Part shown: piece by piece, positions 40,548 through 54,464 of the stretch | Layout of the letters: every line of letters starts with the position of its first letter | Numbering within the stretch: position 1 is the first letter of the stretch | Sequence record: OZ035744.1 | Source: Felixounavirus LF110P1 | Reading direction: 5' to 3' (one strand) | DNA length: 64,000 nucleotides | Translations under genes and position numbers: made by a program | The notes under the pieces: model-generated | Seen by the model: the letters and a program-made list of their open reading frames with translations, nothing else | What the model was told of the DNA's origin: nothing | Database searches by the model: none

Positions 40548-40793
40548 TTGAGAGAGAATAAAATGTTTAACAAAAGTAAAGCTGTGAGTCATGTAGCAAA
40601 AGTTGACAGTAAGATTGAAGAACTTGAGCGCATTCTTGCAAATGCTAGAGAGTCAATAATTAAAGAAGTTGAAGCTGTTGAATCACAAATGCAGCATCTA
40701 ATGCTTAAACGCCAAGAGCTACGTGAGCATCTGGAATATATTGAAACACGAGAGCTAAAGGTTAACAGATTTTTAAGGAGTCCAAATGTTTAA
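40548..40793 (+). CDS. Small coiled-coil protein
   Basis: 81 aa. Confidence 0.3.
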   Translation: MRENKMFNKSKAVSHVAKVDSKIEELERILANARESIIKEVEAVESQMQHLMLKRQELREHLEYIETRELKVNRFLRSPNV

Positions 40794-41541
40794 CTCAAGA
40801 GAAGCAGTAAAAAACTGGAATCTTCGTTGTGGAAACACTCAAAAGAAACCTTACAGTGATGAGTATTGGGAATCTTTAAAATCCCAGTCTCTGTGTATGC
40901 TGGAAGAAGCAAAAGAGCTTGTAAAAGCAATTGAAGAGAAAGACCCCATTGAGACACTGGATGCTCAGGCAGATTTGCAATATGTTCTTGACGGTTTGAT
41001 TTACCTGTCACAACATGACCATAACGGTGCTATGAAAGCTGTTTGCCGTAATAATGACCTGAAGTACACAGATGACTATGAAGAAGCTTTAAAACGTCTT
41101 GCAGATATTGAGAAGCGTACTGGTCAAGAGTGTATTATCAGAATGTCAGTAGTTGATGGTAAAGAGTGGTATGCCATTGTTCGTGCAGCAGATGGGAAGA
41201 TTATGAAGCAATCGAATCTCCCTAAAGTACAGCTTGGTGAATACATTGTAGAACTTGAAAGCCAAGAACTTTTTGTGGTAGTATCTGAGACATGCGTTAT
41301 CTGCAAAGGTATTGTAGATAGTTTAAAGGATTTGGGTGTAGATGGTTTTGTAGAAGTTAATCCAATTACCTCTAAAGCAGATAAAGACTTCTGTAAAGAG
41401 AATGGACTATGGATTGCAGATATTGTCTATTATGATGGTGAGCAGTTCCATGTAACCTCATACCCGAAACTGAATTATGATGCTAATAACCTGAAGTGCT
41501 GGTTAAAAGGGGTTGGTTATAATGGATTCACAGAACATTAA
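40786..41541 (+). CDS. Two-domain protein: MazG-like N-terminus and thioredoxin-fold-like C-terminus with a CxxC (putative)
   Basis: N-terminal acidic helical motifs MLEEAKELVKAIEE and DAQADLQYVLDGL; C-terminal FVVVSETCVICKG resembles a glutaredoxin strand-CxxC-helix start. Confidence 0.3.
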   Translation: MFNSREAVKNWNLRCGNTQKKPYSDEYWESLKSQSLCMLEEAKELVKAIEEKDPIETLDAQADLQYVLDGLIYLSQHDHNGAMKAVCRNNDLKYTDDYEEALKRLADIEKRTGQECIIRMSVVDGKEWYAIVRAADGKIMKQSNLPKVQLGEYIVELESQELFVVVSETCVICKGIVDSLKDLGVDGFVEVNPITSKADKDFCKENGLWIADIVYYDGEQFHVTSYPKLNYDANNLKCWLKGVGYNGFTEH

Positions 41542-41845
41542 TAAAGAGGGTGTGGCTCAGAAGAGCCACTTCTCAAACTACAATATTTCTATGACGGTGT
41601 TCATGAATGACCCGTTACTAGAAAAATATGGTGAGACTCCAGATACACTTCTGGACAATGAACAAGTTTTAAAAGCAGTCCTGTACAAATATGGGATTGA
41701 TATTGAGAAAGAATATTCCTTTGAAATCTGCCAACACAGGAATACTTTCGGTAAAGTTGTGATGGCTCCACTCTTTATGGGTGTAGAAAGGACTGACTAT
41801 GGTTGGTTATATCTAAAAAGAAACTTGGAGAAATACCGTGTCTAA
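41513..41845 (+). CDS. Hypothetical protein
   Basis: 110 aa ORF. Confidence 0.3.
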   Translation: MVIMDSQNINKEGVAQKSHFSNYNISMTVFMNDPLLEKYGETPDTLLDNEQVLKAVLYKYGIDIEKEYSFEICQHRNTFGKVVMAPLFMGVERTDYGWLYLKRNLEKYRV

Positions 41846-42176
41846 AGCAAAAAAGCTATCTTATGATGATATTGTCTCAGGTGCTAAGTTAGGCGTTGAC
41901 AGCCTCGGACAAGATGTTAAGCACGGGGACACAGTTATGTACTGTGATGACCGAAGAGGTAGAAGTGCAATCTTGTTTGGAAGAATTGTTTGCAAGATGC
42001 GAGGCAATTACGTTGTTGCAGACATGGATGTGAACGTTACACAAAAACTTGAAACACTTATGGATGATAATACATCATCATGGTTCCCCCTGAACTGTAT
42101 GCACACTTCTTCAGTCACAAAAGTAAGTGATAAGTTTTACGATATGTGGCAGAATGAGCAAATTTTCAAGATTTAA
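41838..42176 (+). CDS. Hypothetical protein
   Basis: 112 aa ORF followed by a strong terminator. Confidence 0.3.
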   Translation: MSKAKKLSYDDIVSGAKLGVDSLGQDVKHGDTVMYCDDRRGRSAILFGRIVCKMRGNYVVADMDVNVTQKLETLMDDNTSSWFPLNCMHTSSVTKVSDKFYDMWQNEQIFKI

Positions 42177-42222: not shown

Positions 42223-44457
42223 ATGATTAAGACAATTAAAAAATCAAACGGTACAGTAGTAAGCTTTGACCCAGAAAGACTGAATAAGTGGGCATCATGG
42301 GCAGATAAACGTGGAATTATCTGGTCAGAAGTCACTATGGAAGCTATGAAACGTGTCTATGAGGGTTGCACTACAAAAGAGATGCACCAAGCCATGATTG
42401 ATGTTTGTGTTGATAAACAAACTCAAGAGTACTCAGATATGGCTGGACGACTACTTTTGGGTATTATCTACAAAGAAGCATTTGGAGGCTTTACTAAGGT
42501 TCCTACGCTGGTTACCTTCGTTAAAAATATGGAGAGAGCAGGACTTTGGGAGAAGATGGACTACTCACAGGAAGAGCTTGAATACCTGCAAGGTTACATT
42601 GTGCACTCAAAAGATATCTCTTACGGTTATGCAGTCTTGAAACAGTTCAGAGACAAGTATGGTATCCGTGATATTAAAACGGGAAGACTTTTTGAGTCAC
42701 CACAATTTATGTTTATGGGTATGGCTATGAAAGCCTTTGAGAAGCAACCAAAGCACCGTAGATTACAAGATGTTATCAAGCTGTACACTTACCTATCTGA
42801 CCTGAAGATTAACGCTCCTACACCTTATCTGAATGGTTTAAGGGCCACTAAATCAGGTTATGCGTCATGCTGTTTGATTAAGGCAAATGACACTGCCGAA
42901 TCTCTCGGTATTGCTGCAAAGGTTGCTTATGATATGACTACAAAGCAAGCTGGCATTGGGATGCTGATGGAGACTCGTACTATTGGTGATGGTATCCGTC
43001 AAAATACTATTGAGCACATGGGTAAACTACCTTATTACAAGCTTGTACGCTCATCTGTAGAGGCAAACAAACAGAAGAGTCGTGGTGGTTCAGCTAATAA
43101 CTTCTACACTGCTCTAGACCCGCAGATTGAAGATTTACTGCGTTTGAAGCACCCTACAACGGTTCCTTCTAAACGTATTAATGAGATGGACTACTCATTC
43201 GGCACAAACGATTATTTCTGGCAGTGTGTTCAGTATGATACAGATTGGTTGCTATTCTCTTACAAAGATGCACCAAAACTCTATGACATGTTCTACACAG
43301 CATCTGCTGATGAGTTTGCTATGGCAGTTGGTCACGCAGTGCATTCAGGTGTTAAGCACAGACGAGTAAAGGCTCGTGAAATTGCTAAACTGTTTATCCA
43401 GCAGCGTTATGCAACAGGTCGTGTGTACCCATTCTTCACGAATAATGCAAACACACATACACCATTTAAAGAGCCTTTGAAGATGTCAAATCTTTGTATG
43501 GAAATTGTATTGCCAGTGTATGGTTTTGAGAAAGAGACAGACCTTTACAGAGATGATGCTGTGAAAGAGGATGGTGAGGTGGCTCTTTGCTTCCTAGCTA
43601 GTTTGGTTGCAGGGAGAATTTCAGAAGATGAATACGCTGACGTTGCTTATTATGCTCTTGCAATGGTTGACTCCGTTATTGACCTTATGGATTATCCGTA
43701 TCCGTCGATGCGTAACCACGTTCAGAAGCGTCGTTCTGTTGGGATTGGCCTTACAAATGTGGCTCATTACCTTGCGAAGAACTACGTGAACTACTCTTCA
43801 CGAGCAGGTAAAACGAAACTTCATGAACTGGCAGAGATGCACTCTTACTATCTGCATGAAGCCTCTCTGAGACTTGCTAAAGAACGTGGCGTGCCAGAGT
43901 ACATGAAGTTCACTAAGTATCCTGAAGGCTGGGTTCCTCCAAAGACAGCTAACAAGAAGATTGATGAAAAGCATGATGCAAAACTACGATATGATTGGGA
44001 TGACTTAGCACAACGTATCAAAGAAAATGGTGGAATCCGAAACTCTGTATTAGAAGCTTACATGCCTAATGAGAGTTCTTCACTGGCAACCAATACGACA
44101 AACGGCTTGTATCCAATTCGTGACTTTATTTTAACTAAAAAGTCTGCAACTGGTAACGTACTGTTTATTGTTCCAGATTATGAAGAGTTGAAGTATGTAT
44201 ATGAAATTGCTTGGGGTATTGACACCTTTGACCTGATTGATTGTTATGCAATTGTTCAAAAGTTCACTGGTCAAGCTATCTCTTCAGATTTCTATGTTGA
44301 CTACGCAAAAGCTAAGAAGGTATCATTGGCTCAAGCTTTGAAGTACATGATTTATGCCAACTCGGTAGGTATGAAAACCATGTACTACCTTAACAGTCGC
44401 ATTGGTGTAGGTAAATCTGCACTGCAAGATGCTTATTGCGAGGGTTGTGGTGTTTAG
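42223..44457 (+). CDS. nrdA: Ribonucleotide reductase class Ia large subunit
   Basis: 744 aa; N-terminal ATP-cone-like IKKSNGTVVSFDPERL; C-terminal Cys pair CEGCG; followed by nrdB. Confidence 0.85.
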   Translation: MIKTIKKSNGTVVSFDPERLNKWASWADKRGIIWSEVTMEAMKRVYEGCTTKEMHQAMIDVCVDKQTQEYSDMAGRLLLGIIYKEAFGGFTKVPTLVTFVKNMERAGLWEKMDYSQEELEYLQGYIVHSKDISYGYAVLKQFRDKYGIRDIKTGRLFESPQFMFMGMAMKAFEKQPKHRRLQDVIKLYTYLSDLKINAPTPYLNGLRATKSGYASCCLIKANDTAESLGIAAKVAYDMTTKQAGIGMLMETRTIGDGIRQNTIEHMGKLPYYKLVRSSVEANKQKSRGGSANNFYTALDPQIEDLLRLKHPTTVPSKRINEMDYSFGTNDYFWQCVQYDTDWLLFSYKDAPKLYDMFYTASADEFAMAVGHAVHSGVKHRRVKAREIAKLFIQQRYATGRVYPFFTNNANTHTPFKEPLKMSNLCMEIVLPVYGFEKETDLYRDDAVKEDGEVALCFLASLVAGRISEDEYADVAYYALAMVDSVIDLMDYPYPSMRNHVQKRRSVGIGLTNVAHYLAKNYVNYSSRAGKTKLHELAEMHSYYLHEASLRLAKERGVPEYMKFTKYPEGWVPPKTANKKIDEKHDAKLRYDWDDLAQRIKENGGIRNSVLEAYMPNESSSLATNTTNGLYPIRDFILTKKSATGNVLFIVPDYEELKYVYEIAWGIDTFDLIDCYAIVQKFTGQAISSDFYVDYAKAKKVSLAQALKYMIYANSVGMKTMYYLNSRIGVGKSALQDAYCEGCGV

Positions 44458-44512
44458 TTTTAACAACTATGAGGGTCGTAAAAGACCCTCTAAAAATAAC
44501 TTTGGAGAGACC

Positions 44513-44770
44513 ATGAAAGATTTAATAGAAAAACATGAGCGACCAATATACTTGCTCTACAAACCCCGCAAAGCATTGTACTATGTGAGCAGCACAGGTA
44601 TCATGATAAAGCAGAATAATGACTTATGGGTCACTGGAGCCTCTTACATCTCTACAGCAGACGGTAAAATCTACGCAAGACCTTATGAGATGTTCAACAA
44701 AGAAAATTGGGAAGTTTTAGACAGAAAACAAGCCTTAGAAATGATAAAGAAAGGAGAAATCACGCTATGA
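44513..44770 (+). CDS. Hypothetical protein (start chosen at ATG 44513, GGAGAG RBS)
   Basis: 85 aa; stop overlaps the nrdB ATG (ATGA). Confidence 0.3.
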   Translation: MKDLIEKHERPIYLLYKPRKALYYVSSTGIMIKQNNDLWVTGASYISTADGKIYARPYEMFNKENWEVLDRKQALEMIKKGEITL

Positions 44771-45840
44771 TTAACCAGCACCCAATCTTTTTAGGTGGTG
44801 AGAGAAAAACTTTTGACTCACTTAATAAACACTACCCAAAAATCTTTGAACTTTATAAACAACAAAAAGCACAAGACTGGTCAGAAGATGAGTTCCCTTT
44901 TGAACAATCACGTCTTGATTTTGAGAGTGTCCCAGCATCAATGTCAGGTGTAATGCTTGAGATTCTTAAGTGGCAGTGGGAAGCAGATACTCAAGTTGCT
45001 AAGAGCTTGGCATTTGCCTTTGCACCATTTATCTCTGATGACATCTATGCAACTGCAATTATGAAGCAGTCTGAGATTGAAAACCTACATGCCCTTACTT
45101 ACTCAGAGATTGTAAGGCAATGTATTAAAAACCCTGAAACAATCTTAGATGAGATTAACCAGAATATTGCTGTACAAGACCGATTAAAAACTGTGAATCG
45201 TGTTCTTGAAGAATTGCTGGACGAAGGTATAAACTATCGGCTAAGTTATGTCCGTGACTCACTTCTGGATAAAGACCCTTTACACTTCCATAAAGTGATT
45301 CTAAAAGGTCTATTTGCAGTGACTGCACTTGAAGGTATATCCTTTATGGCATCCTTTGCATGTACTTTTGCACTTGATGCTCAAGATAAATTTCAGGGTA
45401 TTGCTCAAGCTGTCCAGAAAATTATGCTTGATGAAATCCTTCACACTAAAATTGATATTGAAGTTTTAAAAGAAACTTTAAGAGATGATGAGTGGCAAAA
45501 AGCTTTCCAACAAATTCTTCCAGAGATTAAAGTAATCTTAGATGAAGTAGTTGAAAGCGAAGAGAAATGGTCGTATTATATCTTCTCCGAAGGACGCGCT
45601 GTAGTTGGATTAAATACAAAGCTTCTTCATGAGTGGGTTTACTATAATGCTGCCCCACTGTATGATATGTTTGGCATTCCCAGAGATTTTGTAGCTCCTA
45701 AAGAACCACCTTTGAAGTATATGATTAAGAAGATGGAAATTGATAAAGAGCAGAATGCTAATCAGGAGCAACAGAACGGTGCGTATTTATTGAATACTGT
45801 TGTAGATGATTTGAATAGTGGATTTTTAGAGGTTCCTTAA
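44767..45840 (+). CDS. nrdB: Ribonucleotide reductase class Ia small subunit (start at 44767, not the track's 44707)
   Basis: ~357 aa helical protein directly downstream of nrdA; GGAG RBS upstream of the 44767 ATG. Confidence 0.8.
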   Translation: MINQHPIFLGGERKTFDSLNKHYPKIFELYKQQKAQDWSEDEFPFEQSRLDFESVPASMSGVMLEILKWQWEADTQVAKSLAFAFAPFISDDIYATAIMKQSEIENLHALTYSEIVRQCIKNPETILDEINQNIAVQDRLKTVNRVLEELLDEGINYRLSYVRDSLLDKDPLHFHKVILKGLFAVTALEGISFMASFACTFALDAQDKFQGIAQAVQKIMLDEILHTKIDIEVLKETLRDDEWQKAFQQILPEIKVILDEVVESEEKWSYYIFSEGRAVVGLNTKLLHEWVYYNAAPLYDMFGIPRDFVAPKEPPLKYMIKKMEIDKEQNANQEQQNGAYLLNTVVDDLNSGFLEVP

Positions 45841-46082
45841 TGACTTATGTAATTTACTCCAAAACTGGATGCCCTCAGTGTGAGACTGCAAAGAATTTTG
45901 CAAAAGCTCGTGGTATTGACCATGTTGTAAGAATGTTAGGACAGGATTATGAACTGTCAGACCTGATGGATATTGCACAGATGCCAGTTCGTCAGATGCC
46001 ATTCATCATGAAAACTGACGGTCAAAACCTAAAACCTGTTGGAACGCTACAGAATTTTATGGCAGAGGTGAATAATGCTTAA
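45840..46082 (+). CDS. Glutaredoxin/NrdH-like redoxin
   Basis: CPQC active site after an N-terminal beta strand (VIYSKTGCPQCETAK); 80 aa; sits between nrdB and nrdD. Confidence 0.7.
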   Translation: MTYVIYSKTGCPQCETAKNFAKARGIDHVVRMLGQDYELSDLMDIAQMPVRQMPFIMKTDGQNLKPVGTLQNFMAEVNNA

Positions 46083-51755: not shown

Positions 51756-52637
51756 ATGAAAACTGTTATTGAAGCCGTCATCACCGCACAAGAGAAATTC
51801 TTCCACACAGAAAAATTTAACATCATCCAATTCCCATCTGGAGAAATTGGTGGAAACTTCTCTGAAGATTTTGTTAAGTTTGCTGAGCGTAATGCTGGTA
51901 AGATTGATAATGTTATATTTACTGTACAGGGGTATGACAAAGATACACTGTTTGCATTAGCTTTGGCTAAGGATGCCGTTGACAGTCTTGTTCCCCAGAA
52001 ATCAGCGATGAAAACCGTTGTTTTCGGGTTCTTACCAAATGCTCGATATGACCGCCACATGTTCAAAGGTGATGCAGCAGCACTGAAAGTCTTTGCCAAC
52101 CTCGTTAATGCAATGGGTTTTGATGCAGTATGTGCTCTTGACCCTCACAGTAATGTTGCAGAAAACTTATTTAAGTGTTTTCAGAGCATGAAGCAAAAAG
52201 ATGTGGCAGTACACTTTGCAAGTGACCCACGCATTGATTTCTTAGTAGCCCCAGATGCAGGTGCAGCTAAGAAGACTGAAGATGCCGCTAAAGAGGTGGA
52301 TAAACCATATATCACAATGTCTAAAGTGCGTAACCTTAAGACTGGTGAAATTACTGGTATGCGAATCCTTGATGATGTTGATTTGACAGATAAAACCGTC
52401 ATGATTCTGGATGATATTTGTGATGGTGGGCGAACCTTCATAGAGGCAGCTAAACATCTTCGTGAAGCAGGTGCAAAACGTGTGGAACTCTATGTAACTC
52501 ATGGTATTTTCTCTAAAGGTGTTGAAAACTTACTTGACAATGGTATTGACCATATCTACACTACAAACTCTTTGGGTGAAGCTAAAGACCGTGGCTTAAC
52601 ACATTACGCCCAAGTTACTGTAGTAACTATTGATTGA
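51756..52637 (+). CDS. Ribose-phosphate pyrophosphokinase (Prs) family protein; could be canonical PRPP synthetase or an ADP-ribose pyrophosphokinase (Adps-like)
   Basis: PRPP-binding signature VMILDDICDGGRTF, plus FGFLPNARYDRH and LDPHS blocks aligning with Prs FGYARQDRR and DLHA. Confidence 0.8.
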   Translation: MKTVIEAVITAQEKFFHTEKFNIIQFPSGEIGGNFSEDFVKFAERNAGKIDNVIFTVQGYDKDTLFALALAKDAVDSLVPQKSAMKTVVFGFLPNARYDRHMFKGDAAALKVFANLVNAMGFDAVCALDPHSNVAENLFKCFQSMKQKDVAVHFASDPRIDFLVAPDAGAAKKTEDAAKEVDKPYITMSKVRNLKTGEITGMRILDDVDLTDKTVMILDDICDGGRTFIEAAKHLREAGAKRVELYVTHGIFSKGVENLLDNGIDHIYTTNSLGEAKDRGLTHYAQVTVVTID

Positions 52638-52682: not shown

Positions 52683-54464
52683 ATGACTAAATCACTTTAT
52701 GCCGTACCAGCAGGTTTAAACGCAGATGCTTACAAATCTGGTCATGTTTACCAGTATCCTAGTGCAACAGAGTACTTGATGTTCAACCTGACACCACGTA
52801 GTGACAAATGGTTTAACAGCCCTTTGGCAATTGACGGTGTAGTGGCTTTTGGTATTCAACGTTTCGTTAAAGATTACTTGATAGACCATTGGAACGCCAC
52901 TTTCTTTGAACGTGACAAAAAAGAAGCAATTGACGAAATCTTAGAAGTCATGAACGGTGTTCTGGGCAAAGATGCTATTGGTCGAGAGCATTGGGAAGCA
53001 CTTCACGACTTAGGTTATCTGCCAGTCGAAGTATACGCTGTAGAAGAAGGCACAGTTGTTCCGATGCGTGTCCCAATGATTGTATTCCAGAACACTGTTT
53101 CAGGTTTCCATTGGGTAGCGGGGTATCTGGAAGATGCTTTCTCTGCTGAGATTTGGAAGGCTTGTACCATTGCAACTATTGCATTGCACTACAAACGTAT
53201 CTGTAAGAAGTGGGCTGACCTCACTTGTGACAACGACTTCCATTTACCTTATCAGTGCCATGACTTTGCTATGCGTGGTATGTCCGGCTTTACTGATGAC
53301 GCATTTAACGCTGTAGGTCACTTAACCAGCTTTAAAGGAACTGATAGCTTCCCTGCTGTATACACTGCTAAACGAATCTATGGTCAGTCTTACCCAATCT
53401 CTGATATTGGTAGTTCTGTACCAGCCACTGAACACTCTGTAATGTGTGCAAACATTGCTTGGGAAGGTGGTAATGAATTGATTGAAGATGAAAGACGCTT
53501 TAAAGGTGAGTTACAAACCTTCCGTCGTTTTTTAACAGAAACTTACCCAACTGGTATTGCAAGTGTTGTTTCAGATACTTATAATTTCTGGAGAACTGTA
53601 TCAGTCATATTACCAGAACTCCGTAAAGAGATTATGGAACGCAATGGCAAACTGGTAATTCGTCCTGATTCTGGAGACCCTGTGCATATTGTCACAGGAT
53701 ACAAAGCAATCCATTTAGAGTGTGCTAAAAAGGCTTATTACGAACACTTAAGCAAGCTTGAAGCCAGCGACACAATGTTGAATGCTGTTCTGAACATGAA
53801 GCTTGAAAACATCAATTATGGTATTGCTGGATGGCTACTGTCAGAAGGCTACGAAATGGTTGTTGACAGAGAAGACTTTGAAGTTGCTGATACAGTACTG
53901 CTGAAGAATGCTTATATGGTTGGTTCTGCAAACGTTGTAACACGTCCTGTAGCAGAGATTGATGGAGCTATTAAGACCCTGTATAACATCTTCGGAGGGA
54001 CTATCAACTCTAAAGGATTCAAGGTACTGGATGAGCATATCGGCCTTATCTATGGTGACTCTATCACGCTGGAACGTGCAAACGAAATCCTGAAGCGCCT
54101 TTATGAAATGGGTTTTGCAAGCTCTAACGTGGTGTTTGGTGTAGGCTCTTACACTTACCAGTACATGACTCGTGACACATTTGCATTTGCTGTCAAAGCA
54201 ACTCTTGCAAGCATTGGTGGTAAAGAGATTATGCTTGCAAAAGACCCTAAAACAGATAGCGGTGTTAAGAAATCTGCCTTTGGTGGTGTAGCGCCTATGT
54301 GGGACGGTGATAAACTGAAAGCTGTAGATGGCTACGGATTCCAGAGTTTTGCAGATGTACTTGACCACCAAGCTTGTGCTTTACGTTTAGTCTTTAGTGA
54401 CTCTGAGCAGTTTGGTTACACAACTCTTGGTGATATTCGAAATAATATTGACAAGCAGCTTTAA
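52683..54464 (+). CDS. Nicotinamide phosphoribosyltransferase (NAMPT/NadV) family protein; possibly Namat-like
   Basis: N-terminal NADAYKSGHVYQYP matches the NAMPT DSYKVTHYKQYP block; 593 aa, longer than I would expect for a typical NAMPT. Confidence 0.75.
   Translation: MTKSLYAVPAGLNADAYKSGHVYQYPSATEYLMFNLTPRSDKWFNSPLAIDGVVAFGIQRFVKDYLIDHWNATFFERDKKEAIDEILEVMNGVLGKDAIGREHWEALHDLGYLPVEVYAVEEGTVVPMRVPMIVFQNTVSGFHWVAGYLEDAFSAEIWKACTIATIALHYKRICKKWADLTCDNDFHLPYQCHDFAMRGMSGFTDDAFNAVGHLTSFKGTDSFPAVYTAKRIYGQSYPISDIGSSVPATEHSVMCANIAWEGGNELIEDERRFKGELQTFRRFLTETYPTGIASVVSDTYNFWRTVSVILPELRKEIMERNGKLVIRPDSGDPVHIVTGYKAIHLECAKKAYYEHLSKLEASDTMLNAVLNMKLENINYGIAGWLLSEGYEMVVDREDFEVADTVLLKNAYMVGSANVVTRPVAEIDGAIKTLYNIFGGTINSKGFKVLDEHIGLIYGDSITLERANEILKRLYEMGFASSNVVFGVGSYTYQYMTRDTFAFAVKATLASIGGKEIMLAKDPKTDSGVKKSAFGGVAPMWDGDKLKAVDGYGFQSFADVLDHQACALRLVFSDSEQFGYTTLGDIRNNIDKQL

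Follow-up and report, generated by a model that had tools for sequence, protein, structure and literature searches.

The gene at positions 40,786–41,541 of the 64,000-nucleotide stretch of Felixounavirus LF110P1 analysed here (OZ035744.1; hereafter the window) encodes a 251-amino-acid protein that almost certainly consists of two domains, i.e., an N-terminal pyrophosphohydrolase domain of the MazG superfamily and a C-terminal domain with a thioredoxin fold. A fusion of this kind, MazG-like with a thioredoxin-fold CxxC domain, had been proposed from the sequence alone, and was borne out by a Pfam PRA-PH match, by profile matches to DR2231 and HisE, by the AlphaFold2 fold and by the Glutaredoxin match of an ortholog. 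We read the whole protein, with a probability of about 0.5, as a dUTP/deoxynucleoside triphosphate (dNTP) pyrophosphatase of the phage module for dNTP synthesis, joined to an NrdH-derived thiol domain in a non-standard role. Taken separately, it is probable that the N-terminal domain (N-domain) is a (d)NTP pyrophosphohydrolase acting in dNTP metabolism, judging by its sequence relatives; that dUTP is its main substrate, by analogy with those relatives, falls somewhat short of an even chance; and for the C-terminal domain (C-domain) a thiol role outside the canonical one, in regulation or tethering, is put forward tentatively. Coordinates are collected in Table 1.

Residues 19–87 matched the Pfam model PRA-PH (PF01503) with 27.4 bits, against a gathering score of 21.3 bits, and seven of eight diverse family members matched the same model. 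The window protein had no match to the canonical MazG model of Pfam (PF03819), which was matched by three of the eight relatives, P0020 alone (27.5 bits) exceeding the 22-bit cut-off. A full-length AlphaFold2 model, built on an alignment of 18 sequences (mean predicted local distance difference test score, pLDDT, 80.7; predicted template modelling score, pTM, 0.44), placed a four-helix core at residues 4–14, 25–50, 54–75 and 79–91, with a helix (98–112) and a β-hairpin (116–133) inserted after it. The 50 PDB matches listed by Foldseek were of only two kinds, thioredoxin-fold proteins and DR2231 of Deinococcus radiodurans, the latter being the sole MazG-type protein among them (template modelling score 0.43–0.59, normalised to the target). 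A fold search of BFVD likewise returned proteins described as "NTP pyrophosphohydrolase, DR2231-like". With a profile of 24 sequences from the wider N-domain family, DR2231 (PDB 2yeu, 2yf3, 5hva and others) was the best match among solved structures (E 4.9e-7 to 2.7e-6), and HisE (1yvw; E 9.2e-7) came next. Profile searching with the N-domain also recovered some 30 fused proteins, together with numerous standalone relatives (148–178 amino acids) that span the entire N-domain, hairpin included.

Residue conservation was counted over 48 aligned N-domain relatives, 15 fused and 33 standalone. E40, E41, E44, D63, N90, K93, K138 and K141 were invariant in all 48, and D59, R133 and D136 nearly so. 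The acidic helical motifs to which the original prediction had drawn attention are accordingly real: E40-E41-x-x-E44 and D59...D63 lie in the predicted helices 25–50 and 54–75, and their residues E40, E41, E44, D59 and D63 align to the metal ligands E46, E47, E50, E79 and D82 of DR2231. The two proteins also have in common an N-x-x-K motif and a C-terminal R-x-x-D-G-K-x-x-K-P motif. Unlike DR2231, to which it is about 16–20% identical, the phage protein carries an insertion (residues 98–133) before the basic motif, as well as the whole extra C-domain. HisE, i.e., phosphoribosyl-ATP pyrophosphohydrolase (PF01503, 1yvw), has the same four-helix core and acidic motifs, but the phage gene has no histidine-biosynthesis context, and the public labels "phosphoribosyl-ATP pyrophosphohydrolase" are a transfer of the family name rather than a statement of function. 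The Pfam match, the fold, the invariant residues and the alignment to the DR2231 ligands are the grounds on which the N-domain is predicted to be a catalytically intact all-α NTP pyrophosphohydrolase of the DR2231/HisE type, with a helix-hairpin insertion.

When residues 156–251 were modelled alone with AlphaFold2, on an alignment of nine sequences, the best of five models had a pLDDT of 90.3 (range 87.6 to 90.3) and a pTM of 0.80. Its elements (β1 161–165, α1 171–182, β2 189–191, α2 197–205, β3 212–216, β4 221–225, α3 233–242) follow the order β-α-β-α-β-β-α and form a four-stranded mixed sheet with three helices, as in the thioredoxin-fold class. Structure prediction, which had been suggested as a check on the proposed fusion, therefore returned both expected folds, MazG-type (DR2231 by Foldseek) and thioredoxin-type. 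The β-strand followed by CVIC, which the original prediction had likened to the start of a glutaredoxin fold, was also recovered: LFVVV (161–165) is the predicted strand β1, and C170 and C173 stand behind it at the N-terminus of helix α1, in the canonical active-site position, where they align to the CxxC of NrdH and thioredoxins. As to the likeness to glutaredoxin, β1-CxxC-α1-β2 aligned to the glutaredoxin encoded elsewhere in the same phage (hhalign, E 6.5e-5); the domain is atypical in having no cis-proline. BLASTP gave no alignment between the C-domain and this glutaredoxin, and the relationship is visible to profile methods only.

The sequence signal of the C-domain is weaker than that of its model, but independent of it. 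The C-terminal half of the window protein by itself had no Pfam match, even at an E-value of 10, and searches of Pfam and of PDB sequences with this half or with a narrow profile (A4) gave no match. A signal was seen only with a diverse profile (A7) and with an ortholog from Kolesnikvirus (P0022, 39% identity). Over residues 162–200, this ortholog matched positions 1–39 of the 60 in the Pfam Glutaredoxin profile with 23.5 bits, against a gathering score of 22.9 bits, and it matched NCBIfam NrdH at an E-value of 8.7e-4 (19.4 bits, far under the cut-off of 85.75). Of the 20 best PDB matches to the diverse profile, all of them sub-threshold, 14 were thioredoxin-fold proteins aligned CxxC on CxxC, including four NrdH, Grx1/2/3, thioredoxins, the thioredoxin domain of adenosine phosphosulfate (APS) reductase, and protein disulfide isomerase.

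The glutaredoxin and NrdH families have characteristic motifs, i.e., CPYC and a TVP/GG-x-DD glutathione site in glutaredoxins, and C-V/M-Q-C with WSGFRP in NrdH. By inspection, neither the WSGFRP motif of NrdH nor the glutathione (GSH)-binding GG-x-DD motif of glutaredoxins was present in the C-domain alignments. Among the 32 proteins of fused length that were collected, both cysteines of the CxxC were kept in every one, while the dipeptide between them took 12 forms (VI, II, AI, PI, TL, EI, FI, SM, TQ, SL, SF and TK). The cis-proline of NrdH and desulfothioredoxin falls, in profile alignments, on D212 or A211 of the window protein; the family has A, G or S at this position, and 31 of the 32 have no proline anywhere between α2 and β3. 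The exception, P0038, does have a proline, one residue out of register. Across proteins at 26–65% identity, eight positions of the C-domain were invariant (V164, C170, C173, G184, A198, D199, W239 and L240), and C203 was lost in several members. Compared with NrdH and the small glutaredoxins (PF00462, TIGR02194; 1h75, 4fiw, 1r7h, 7c10), the C-domain is of the same size and topology, has its CxxC at the start of helix 1 and is likewise encoded in an RNR (ribonucleotide reductase) gene cluster; unlike them, it has no cis-proline, no fixed dipeptide, no WSGFRP or GSH-binding motif, and it is never free-standing. Throughout the thioredoxin-fold class, the cis-proline is more conserved than the CxxC itself, and is part of the substrate-binding site (PMC2757866). 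The cysteines of the C-domain are clearly under selection, whereas the features that tune a canonical reductase are not. The most likely origin of the domain is an NrdH or glutaredoxin gene belonging to the RNR cluster.

The fusion is real and conserved, is never split, and is intact in about 300 genomes of Andersonviridae phages. The window itself is 97–99.5% identical in DNA to Felixounavirus genomes such as LF82P9, VpaE1 and UAB_Phi87, and was on this account assigned to the Andersonviridae, subfamily Ounavirinae; the protein is the ortholog of Felix O1 ORF109 (NP_944984.1). In PHROGs, phrog_2144 matched it from end to end (E 1e-101), and by tblastn the protein was found at a coverage of at least 80% in 301 of 304 matching phage records. 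Carriers include Felixounavirus, Mooglevirus-type and Suspvirus-type phages, Kolesnikvirus, Arnovirus (which belongs to the Andersonviridae outside the Ounavirinae), one Yersinia phage and metagenomic contigs. BFVD held one full-length structural relative, from Pectobacterium phage Wc4 and of the same family; the rest of its matches were pyrophosphohydrolases with a single domain or, much further down, viral redoxins encoded as separate proteins. When 1.84 billion representative proteins were scanned by HMMER with the C-domain profile, six proteins of 244–251 amino acids were found, always with the domain at the C-terminus, and at this sensitivity none had it free-standing or in another fusion. 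The full-text literature search yielded no paper whose title or abstract deals with a phage fusion of MazG and glutaredoxin. The original prediction had called the fusion unusual, and as an architecture it is, the C-domain occurring only here and no description having been found; the gene is, however, common in sequenced phages. RefSeq labels Felix O1 ORF109 "MazG-like pyrophosphatase", other records read "phosphoribosyl-ATP pyrophosphohydrolase-like" or "hypothetical", and none of the public annotations examined for the family names a redoxin domain.

The same scan matched five long proteins (P0024–P0028) that we judged to be spurious. The two inspected, P0025 and P0028, are tandem-repeat proteins whose repeats match a short "EFC..N.L..AD.V.Y"-like motif several times, and the same pattern is seen in the remaining three, which have 1153–2339 amino acids and are each matched in six stretches; such false positives could mislead automated domain transfer. 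The 80-residue, cysteine-free tail of P0041 (224 amino acids) was considered as a degenerate C-domain and found to be unrelated (hhalign probability 1%).

The gene was said to lie next to the RNR operon, and it does: nrdA begins 680 bp downstream, after two small open reading frames (ORFs), and is followed by nrdB, a separate glutaredoxin gene directly 3′ of nrdB, nrdD and nrdG. With this glutaredoxin and the fused C-domain, the cluster therefore encodes two CxxC modules of redoxin fold. The C-terminal Cys pair of NrdA is the usual site reduced by thioredoxin, glutaredoxin or NrdH, and the NrdA of the window ends in such a CxxC tail (...DAYCEGCGV), to which the fused C-domain might dock. In Kolesnikvirus, where the protein is 39% identical, the order is kept: the exonuclease gene comes first, then the GIY-YIG endonuclease, a small ORF, the fused gene, two further small ORFs, nrdA and nrdB. 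Annotated in Felix O1 are td, frd, a deoxynucleoside monophosphate (dNMP) kinase, nrdAB, glutaredoxin and nrdDG, and neither a dUTPase nor a dCMP deaminase is among the annotated genes; tblastn with E. coli Dut found nothing better than an E-value of 0.5 in the window or in Felix O1.

Gene neighbourhoods were examined for seven standalone relatives of the N-domain on long contigs, and are given at the foot of Table 1. In six of the seven, ThyX and/or RNR was encoded within about 4 kb, a setting from which the N-domain family is assigned to the synthesis of dNTP and dTMP. In T4, an enzyme of this superfamily feeds dNMPs into thymidylate or modified-base synthesis. The phage all-α (d)NTP pyrophosphatases (cited in PMC5122711) belong to the same superfamily as the N-domain and have the same proposed role, i.e., supply of dNMPs alongside RNR; unlike the fused protein they have no redoxin domain, and no direct sequence match between them and the window protein was obtained. 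For DR2231, the title of Mota et al. 2016 (FEBS J 283:4274; cited in PMC7575645, PMC10014863) speaks of "exclusive activity on dUTP", and the review "Life without dUTPase" considers MazG-like enzymes such as DR2231 possible substitutes for dUTPase (PMC5122711). The specificity for dUTP is a feature of DR2231, and for the phage protein it is predicted by analogy. Given the dNTP/dTMP gene context and DR2231 as the nearest characterised relative, hydrolysis of dUTP is the best single guess.

The proposed mechanism is as follows. The acidic cluster E40, E41, E44, D59 and D63 would bind a divalent metal, N90, K93, R133, K138 and K141 would hold the triphosphate, and the N-domain would cleave a (d)NTP to (d)NMP and pyrophosphate. 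The substrate would most likely be dUTP, possibly together with dCTP or aberrant dNTPs; the dUMP produced would feed the phage thymidylate synthase, and uracil would be kept out of phage DNA. The C-domain, since both the cis-proline and the constraint on the CxxC dipeptide have been lost, would no longer be a general disulfide reductase. It may instead serve as a thiol accessory module, i.e., as a redox-responsive switch and/or as a tether to RNR through the CxxC tail of NrdA, and such a switch would sense the thiol redox state on which RNR depends. A coupling of nucleotide sanitation to redox control, as suggested in the original prediction, is plausible.

Several observations weigh against this reading. 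The similarity to DR2231 is remote, the helix-hairpin insertion of the phage family has no counterpart in DR2231, and substrate specificity within the MazG superfamily is not predictable from the fold. The td gene of Felix O1 is some 17 kb away from the fused gene; adjacency to ThyX is known only from the standalone relatives; and the host supplies Dut, so that a phage dUTPase is not strictly required. The role given to the C-domain rests on negative features, namely the lost cis-proline and the variable dipeptide. The AlphaFold2 alignments were shallow (18 sequences for the full length and nine for the C-domain), and the geometry between the domains is unreliable at the full-length pTM of 0.44.

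A column-by-column scan found only two N-domain positions that track the fusion. These are Q76 and H79, both in the loop that joins helices 3 and 4. His stood at position 79 of every fused protein (15 of 15) and of no standalone relative (0 of 33); for Gln at position 76, the counts were 14 of 15 and 3 of 33, respectively. The H79 pattern may reflect an inter-domain interface or a metal ligand, or only inheritance within a clade; it is weak evidence, as the fused proteins form one clade. An intramolecular redox pair between C87 and the CxxC was also considered and rejected, because 14 of the 33 standalone relatives have Cys at position 87 and the fused P0039 has Ser.

One alternative for the C-domain is that it is a working hydrogen donor of the NrdH/glutaredoxin type for the phage class Ia RNR, passing electrons from host thioredoxin reductase or glutathione to the C-terminal Cys pair of NrdA, in which case the fusion would merely co-localise two activities of the dNTP pathway. 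Its nearest sequence families (NrdH, mycoredoxin and glutaredoxin), the invariance of both cysteines, the position just upstream of nrdA, kept in synteny at 39% identity, and the CEGC at the NrdA end are all consistent with this. We nevertheless consider it unlikely: the substrate-binding cis-proline, more conserved than the CxxC (PMC2757866), is missing in 31 of 32 members, the dipeptide that sets the redox potential drifts freely, the WSGFRP and GSH-binding motifs were not seen by inspection, and a canonical glutaredoxin is already encoded directly after nrdB. We also regard as unlikely that the C-domain is a metal or [2Fe-2S] module, in which the CxxC thiolates, freed by loss of the cis-proline, ligate zinc or an Fe-S cluster, perhaps across the two chains of a dimer of the MazG type or with H79 as a further ligand. 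Such a module would let the enzyme respond to iron or oxidants, or would simply stabilise the oligomer. MazG/DR2231 enzymes are oligomeric, and the PDB entries for DR2231 and HisE hold several chains each. A freely varying dipeptide would be expected of a metal knuckle more than of a redox site that is tuned, and His79 is found in every fused protein and in no standalone one. The A, G or S at the cis-proline position recalls human TRX1, in which replacement of the cis-proline by S, T or A suffices for incorporation of [2Fe-2S] into homodimers, according to the passage of PMC6210436 that cites Su et al. 2007 (also PMC2757866). Each chain, however, has just two invariant cysteines, C203 being lost in several members; the TRX1 cluster used an additional Cys73 that has no general equivalent in the phage family; and the H79 pattern may be simple clade inheritance. 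A more specific version, rather improbable in our estimate, is that the C-domain is not a reductase at all, and that a metal or [2Fe-2S] site, to which H79 may contribute, is formed where the two C-domains of a MazG-type dimer meet and gates dUTP/dNTP hydrolysis. If true, it would be the first natural thioredoxin-fold domain to exploit loss of the cis-proline, the pyrophosphatase would become iron- or oxidant-sensing, and hydrolysis of dUTP/dNTP would be gated to the redox state needed by the neighbouring RNRs.

Other alternatives concern the N-domain. It might be a hydrolase of alarmones or signal nucleotides, an anti-defence factor degrading (p)ppGpp in the manner of Atd1, a MazG-like ppGpp pyrophosphatase from Pectobacterium phage PcCB7V that hydrolyses ppGpp (Km about 50 μM) but not rNTPs and protects against TIR effectors (bioRxiv 10.1101/2022.06.09.495361). 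A NARP1 anti-defence operon, moreover, appears to be present in the window. Yet PcCB7V is not among the 302–304 phage records with a homolog of the fused protein, a finding on which a link to Atd1 was rejected. The window protein does not match the canonical MazG model, its nearest solved relatives are DR2231 and HisE, and both fused and standalone relatives lie in RNR, ThyX or replication modules rather than in anti-defence islands. Like the fused protein, Atd1 is a phage-encoded pyrophosphatase of the MazG superfamily, but it is single-domain, has experimental data behind it (bioRxiv 10.1101/2022.06.09.495361) and belongs to a different subfamily and an anti-defence neighbourhood, whereas the fused protein is in a dNTP module; the two are set apart by the absence of the source phage, not by sequence comparison. 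Genomic context and the nearest characterised relative favour hydrolysis of dNTP (dUTP) over that of alarmones, which we hold to be very improbable as the function of this protein. It is somewhat less so, while still improbable, that the enzyme is a general house-cleaner of oxidised or aberrant dNTPs (8-oxo-dGTP, 5-OH-dCTP), switched on by a thioredoxin-like domain that senses oxidative stress, which is the original prediction's idea of sanitation under redox control. House-cleaning members of the MazG superfamily are documented, according to statements in PMC10014863 and to Moroz et al. 2005 as cited in PMC5122711, and a strictly conserved, redox-sensitive CxxC is present in cis; against this, DR2231, the closest characterised relative, acts specifically on dUTP and is not promiscuous, and the ThyX genes next to standalone relatives suggest supply of dUMP.

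Both superfamilies were known, and so was the gene, which is common in sequenced phages; the second domain, however, is named in none of the annotations examined, the literature search gave no description of the architecture, and the redoxin departs from the most conserved rule among proteins of its fold. Phages of the Felix O1 type are classic Salmonella typing phages and widely used candidates for therapy and biocontrol. In their roughly 300 genomes with the gene, its labels go no further than "MazG-like", "PRA-PH-like" or hypothetical, an annotation that the second domain corrects. The second domain would suggest that hydrolysis of dUTP/dNTP and reduction of ribonucleotides are linked, physically or through regulation, in a phage without a conventional dUTPase. 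It also provides a natural thioredoxin fold with a strictly conserved CxxC and without cis-proline, a state studied mainly through point mutants that gain Fe-S binding. A protein of 251 amino acids is tractable, and Cas13a selection has already served to edit the BASEL phage Bas63, which we take to be a Felixounavirus too.

Table 1. Features of the fused gene and its surroundings (positions in the window), and gene neighbourhoods of seven standalone N-domain relatives on other contigs
Feature	Position	Strand	Basis or remark
Whole gene, 251-amino-acid two-domain protein	40786-41541	+	ATG 40786, stop 41539-41541; open reading frame list
Shine-Dalgarno AAGGAG	40775-40780	+	5 nt before ATG 40786; read from sequence
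N-terminal DR2231/HisE-type all-α NTP pyrophosphohydrolase domain (predicted), residues 1-150	40786-41235	+	Pfam, AlphaFold2, Foldseek, profile search
Predicted metal-binding motif 1, E40-E41-A-K-E44	40903-40917	+	aligns to DR2231 E46/E47/E50; invariant 48/48
Predicted metal-binding motif 2, D59-A-Q-A-D63	40960-40974	+	aligns to DR2231 E79/D82; D63 invariant, D59 47/48
Q76-H-D-H79, loop between helices 3 and 4	41011-41022	+	Q76 and H79 track presence of the C-domain
V86-C87-x-N89-N90-D91-x-K93, helix 4	41041-41064	+	N90 and K93 invariant; N-x-x-K of MazG/DR2231
R133-x-x-D136-x-K138-x-x-K141-...-P146, basic motif after hairpin	41182-41223	+	aligns to C-terminal RRADGKQLKP of DR2231
Inter-domain linker, residues 151-159	41236-41262	+	low-confidence model: pLDDT <50 at 155-158
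C-terminal thioredoxin-fold (NrdH/glutaredoxin-like) domain, residues 160-251	41263-41538	+	AlphaFold2, profiles
C170-V-I-C173, CxxC	41293-41304	+	codons TGC GTT ATC TGC; N-terminus of helix α1
A211-D212, cis-proline position of thioredoxin folds	41416-41421	+	N-terminus of β3; no Pro
GIY-YIG homing endonuclease, 165 amino acids	40044-40541	+	Pfam SegE_GIY-YIG, E 9.4e-28
Small conserved ORF, phrog_4442, predicted coiled coil	40548-40793	+	PHROGs; flanks fused gene
Small conserved ORF, phrog_4007	41522-41845	+	PHROGs; flanks fused gene
Small conserved ORF, phrog_3358	41838-42176	+	PHROGs; flanks fused gene
nrdA, class Ia RNR large subunit	42223-44457	+	two small ORFs after fused gene
Small ORF, phrog_2652	44429-44770	+	E 8.7e-36; between nrdA and nrdB, overlaps nrdA end; hypothetical ORF113 in Felix O1
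Small glutaredoxin/NrdH-like protein, 80 amino acids, CPQC and MPF cis-Pro	45840-46082	+	Pfam Glutaredoxin 30.5 bits; NCBIfam glutaredoxin/NrdH matches
Prs-like gene (Pribosyltran and Pribosyl_synth)	51756-52637	+	Pfam domains
NAMPT-like gene (NAPRTase and NAMPT_N)	52683-54464	+	Pfam domains; adjoins 51756-52637
Standalone relative P0067			ThyX directly downstream, then RNR
Standalone relative P0049			NT5C upstream; ThyX one small ORF downstream, then RNR and glutaredoxin
Standalone relative P0047			downstream: NT5C, thioredoxin/glutaredoxin, ThyX, RNR
Standalone relative P0068			downstream: RNR small and large subunits, nrdD, nrdG
Standalone relative P0040			exonuclease and RuvC upstream; RNR large subunit 3.6 kb downstream
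Standalone relative P0079			weak ThyX match and uracil-DNA glycosylase (UDG) within 5 kb
Standalone relative P0053			between clamp loader and DNA polymerase, T4-like replication module

The fused gene is tightly packed among its neighbours, as judged by its overlaps with the upstream and downstream ORFs: its start overlaps the stop of the upstream 81-amino-acid ORF by 8 nt, and the downstream ORF, starting at ATG 41522, overlaps its end by 20 nt. ORFs of like size occur at the matching places in Kolesnikvirus for the three small flanking ORFs (phrog_4442, phrog_4007 and phrog_3358), which are possible partners of the fused protein. The phrog_4007 ORF has a weak match to a "thymidylate synthase" PHROG of 115 positions, which is probably annotation noise. 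Further upstream, the GIY-YIG endonuclease ORF is called "NAD synthetase" by phrog_447 and by RefSeq (Felix01p201), which looks like a propagated misannotation.

The Prs-like and NAMPT-like genes match, in domain composition, the two genes (Adps and Namat) of the NARP1 operon, with which phage Bas63 counters defences that deplete NAD, rebuilding NAD+ from ADP-ribose and nicotinamide (bioRxiv 10.1101/2024.02.11.579819). The two genes are separated by an HNH endonuclease in Felix O1 but not in the window. Because of this domain composition, the labels "ribose-phosphate pyrophosphokinase" and "nadV" are probably wrong as to the reactions catalysed.

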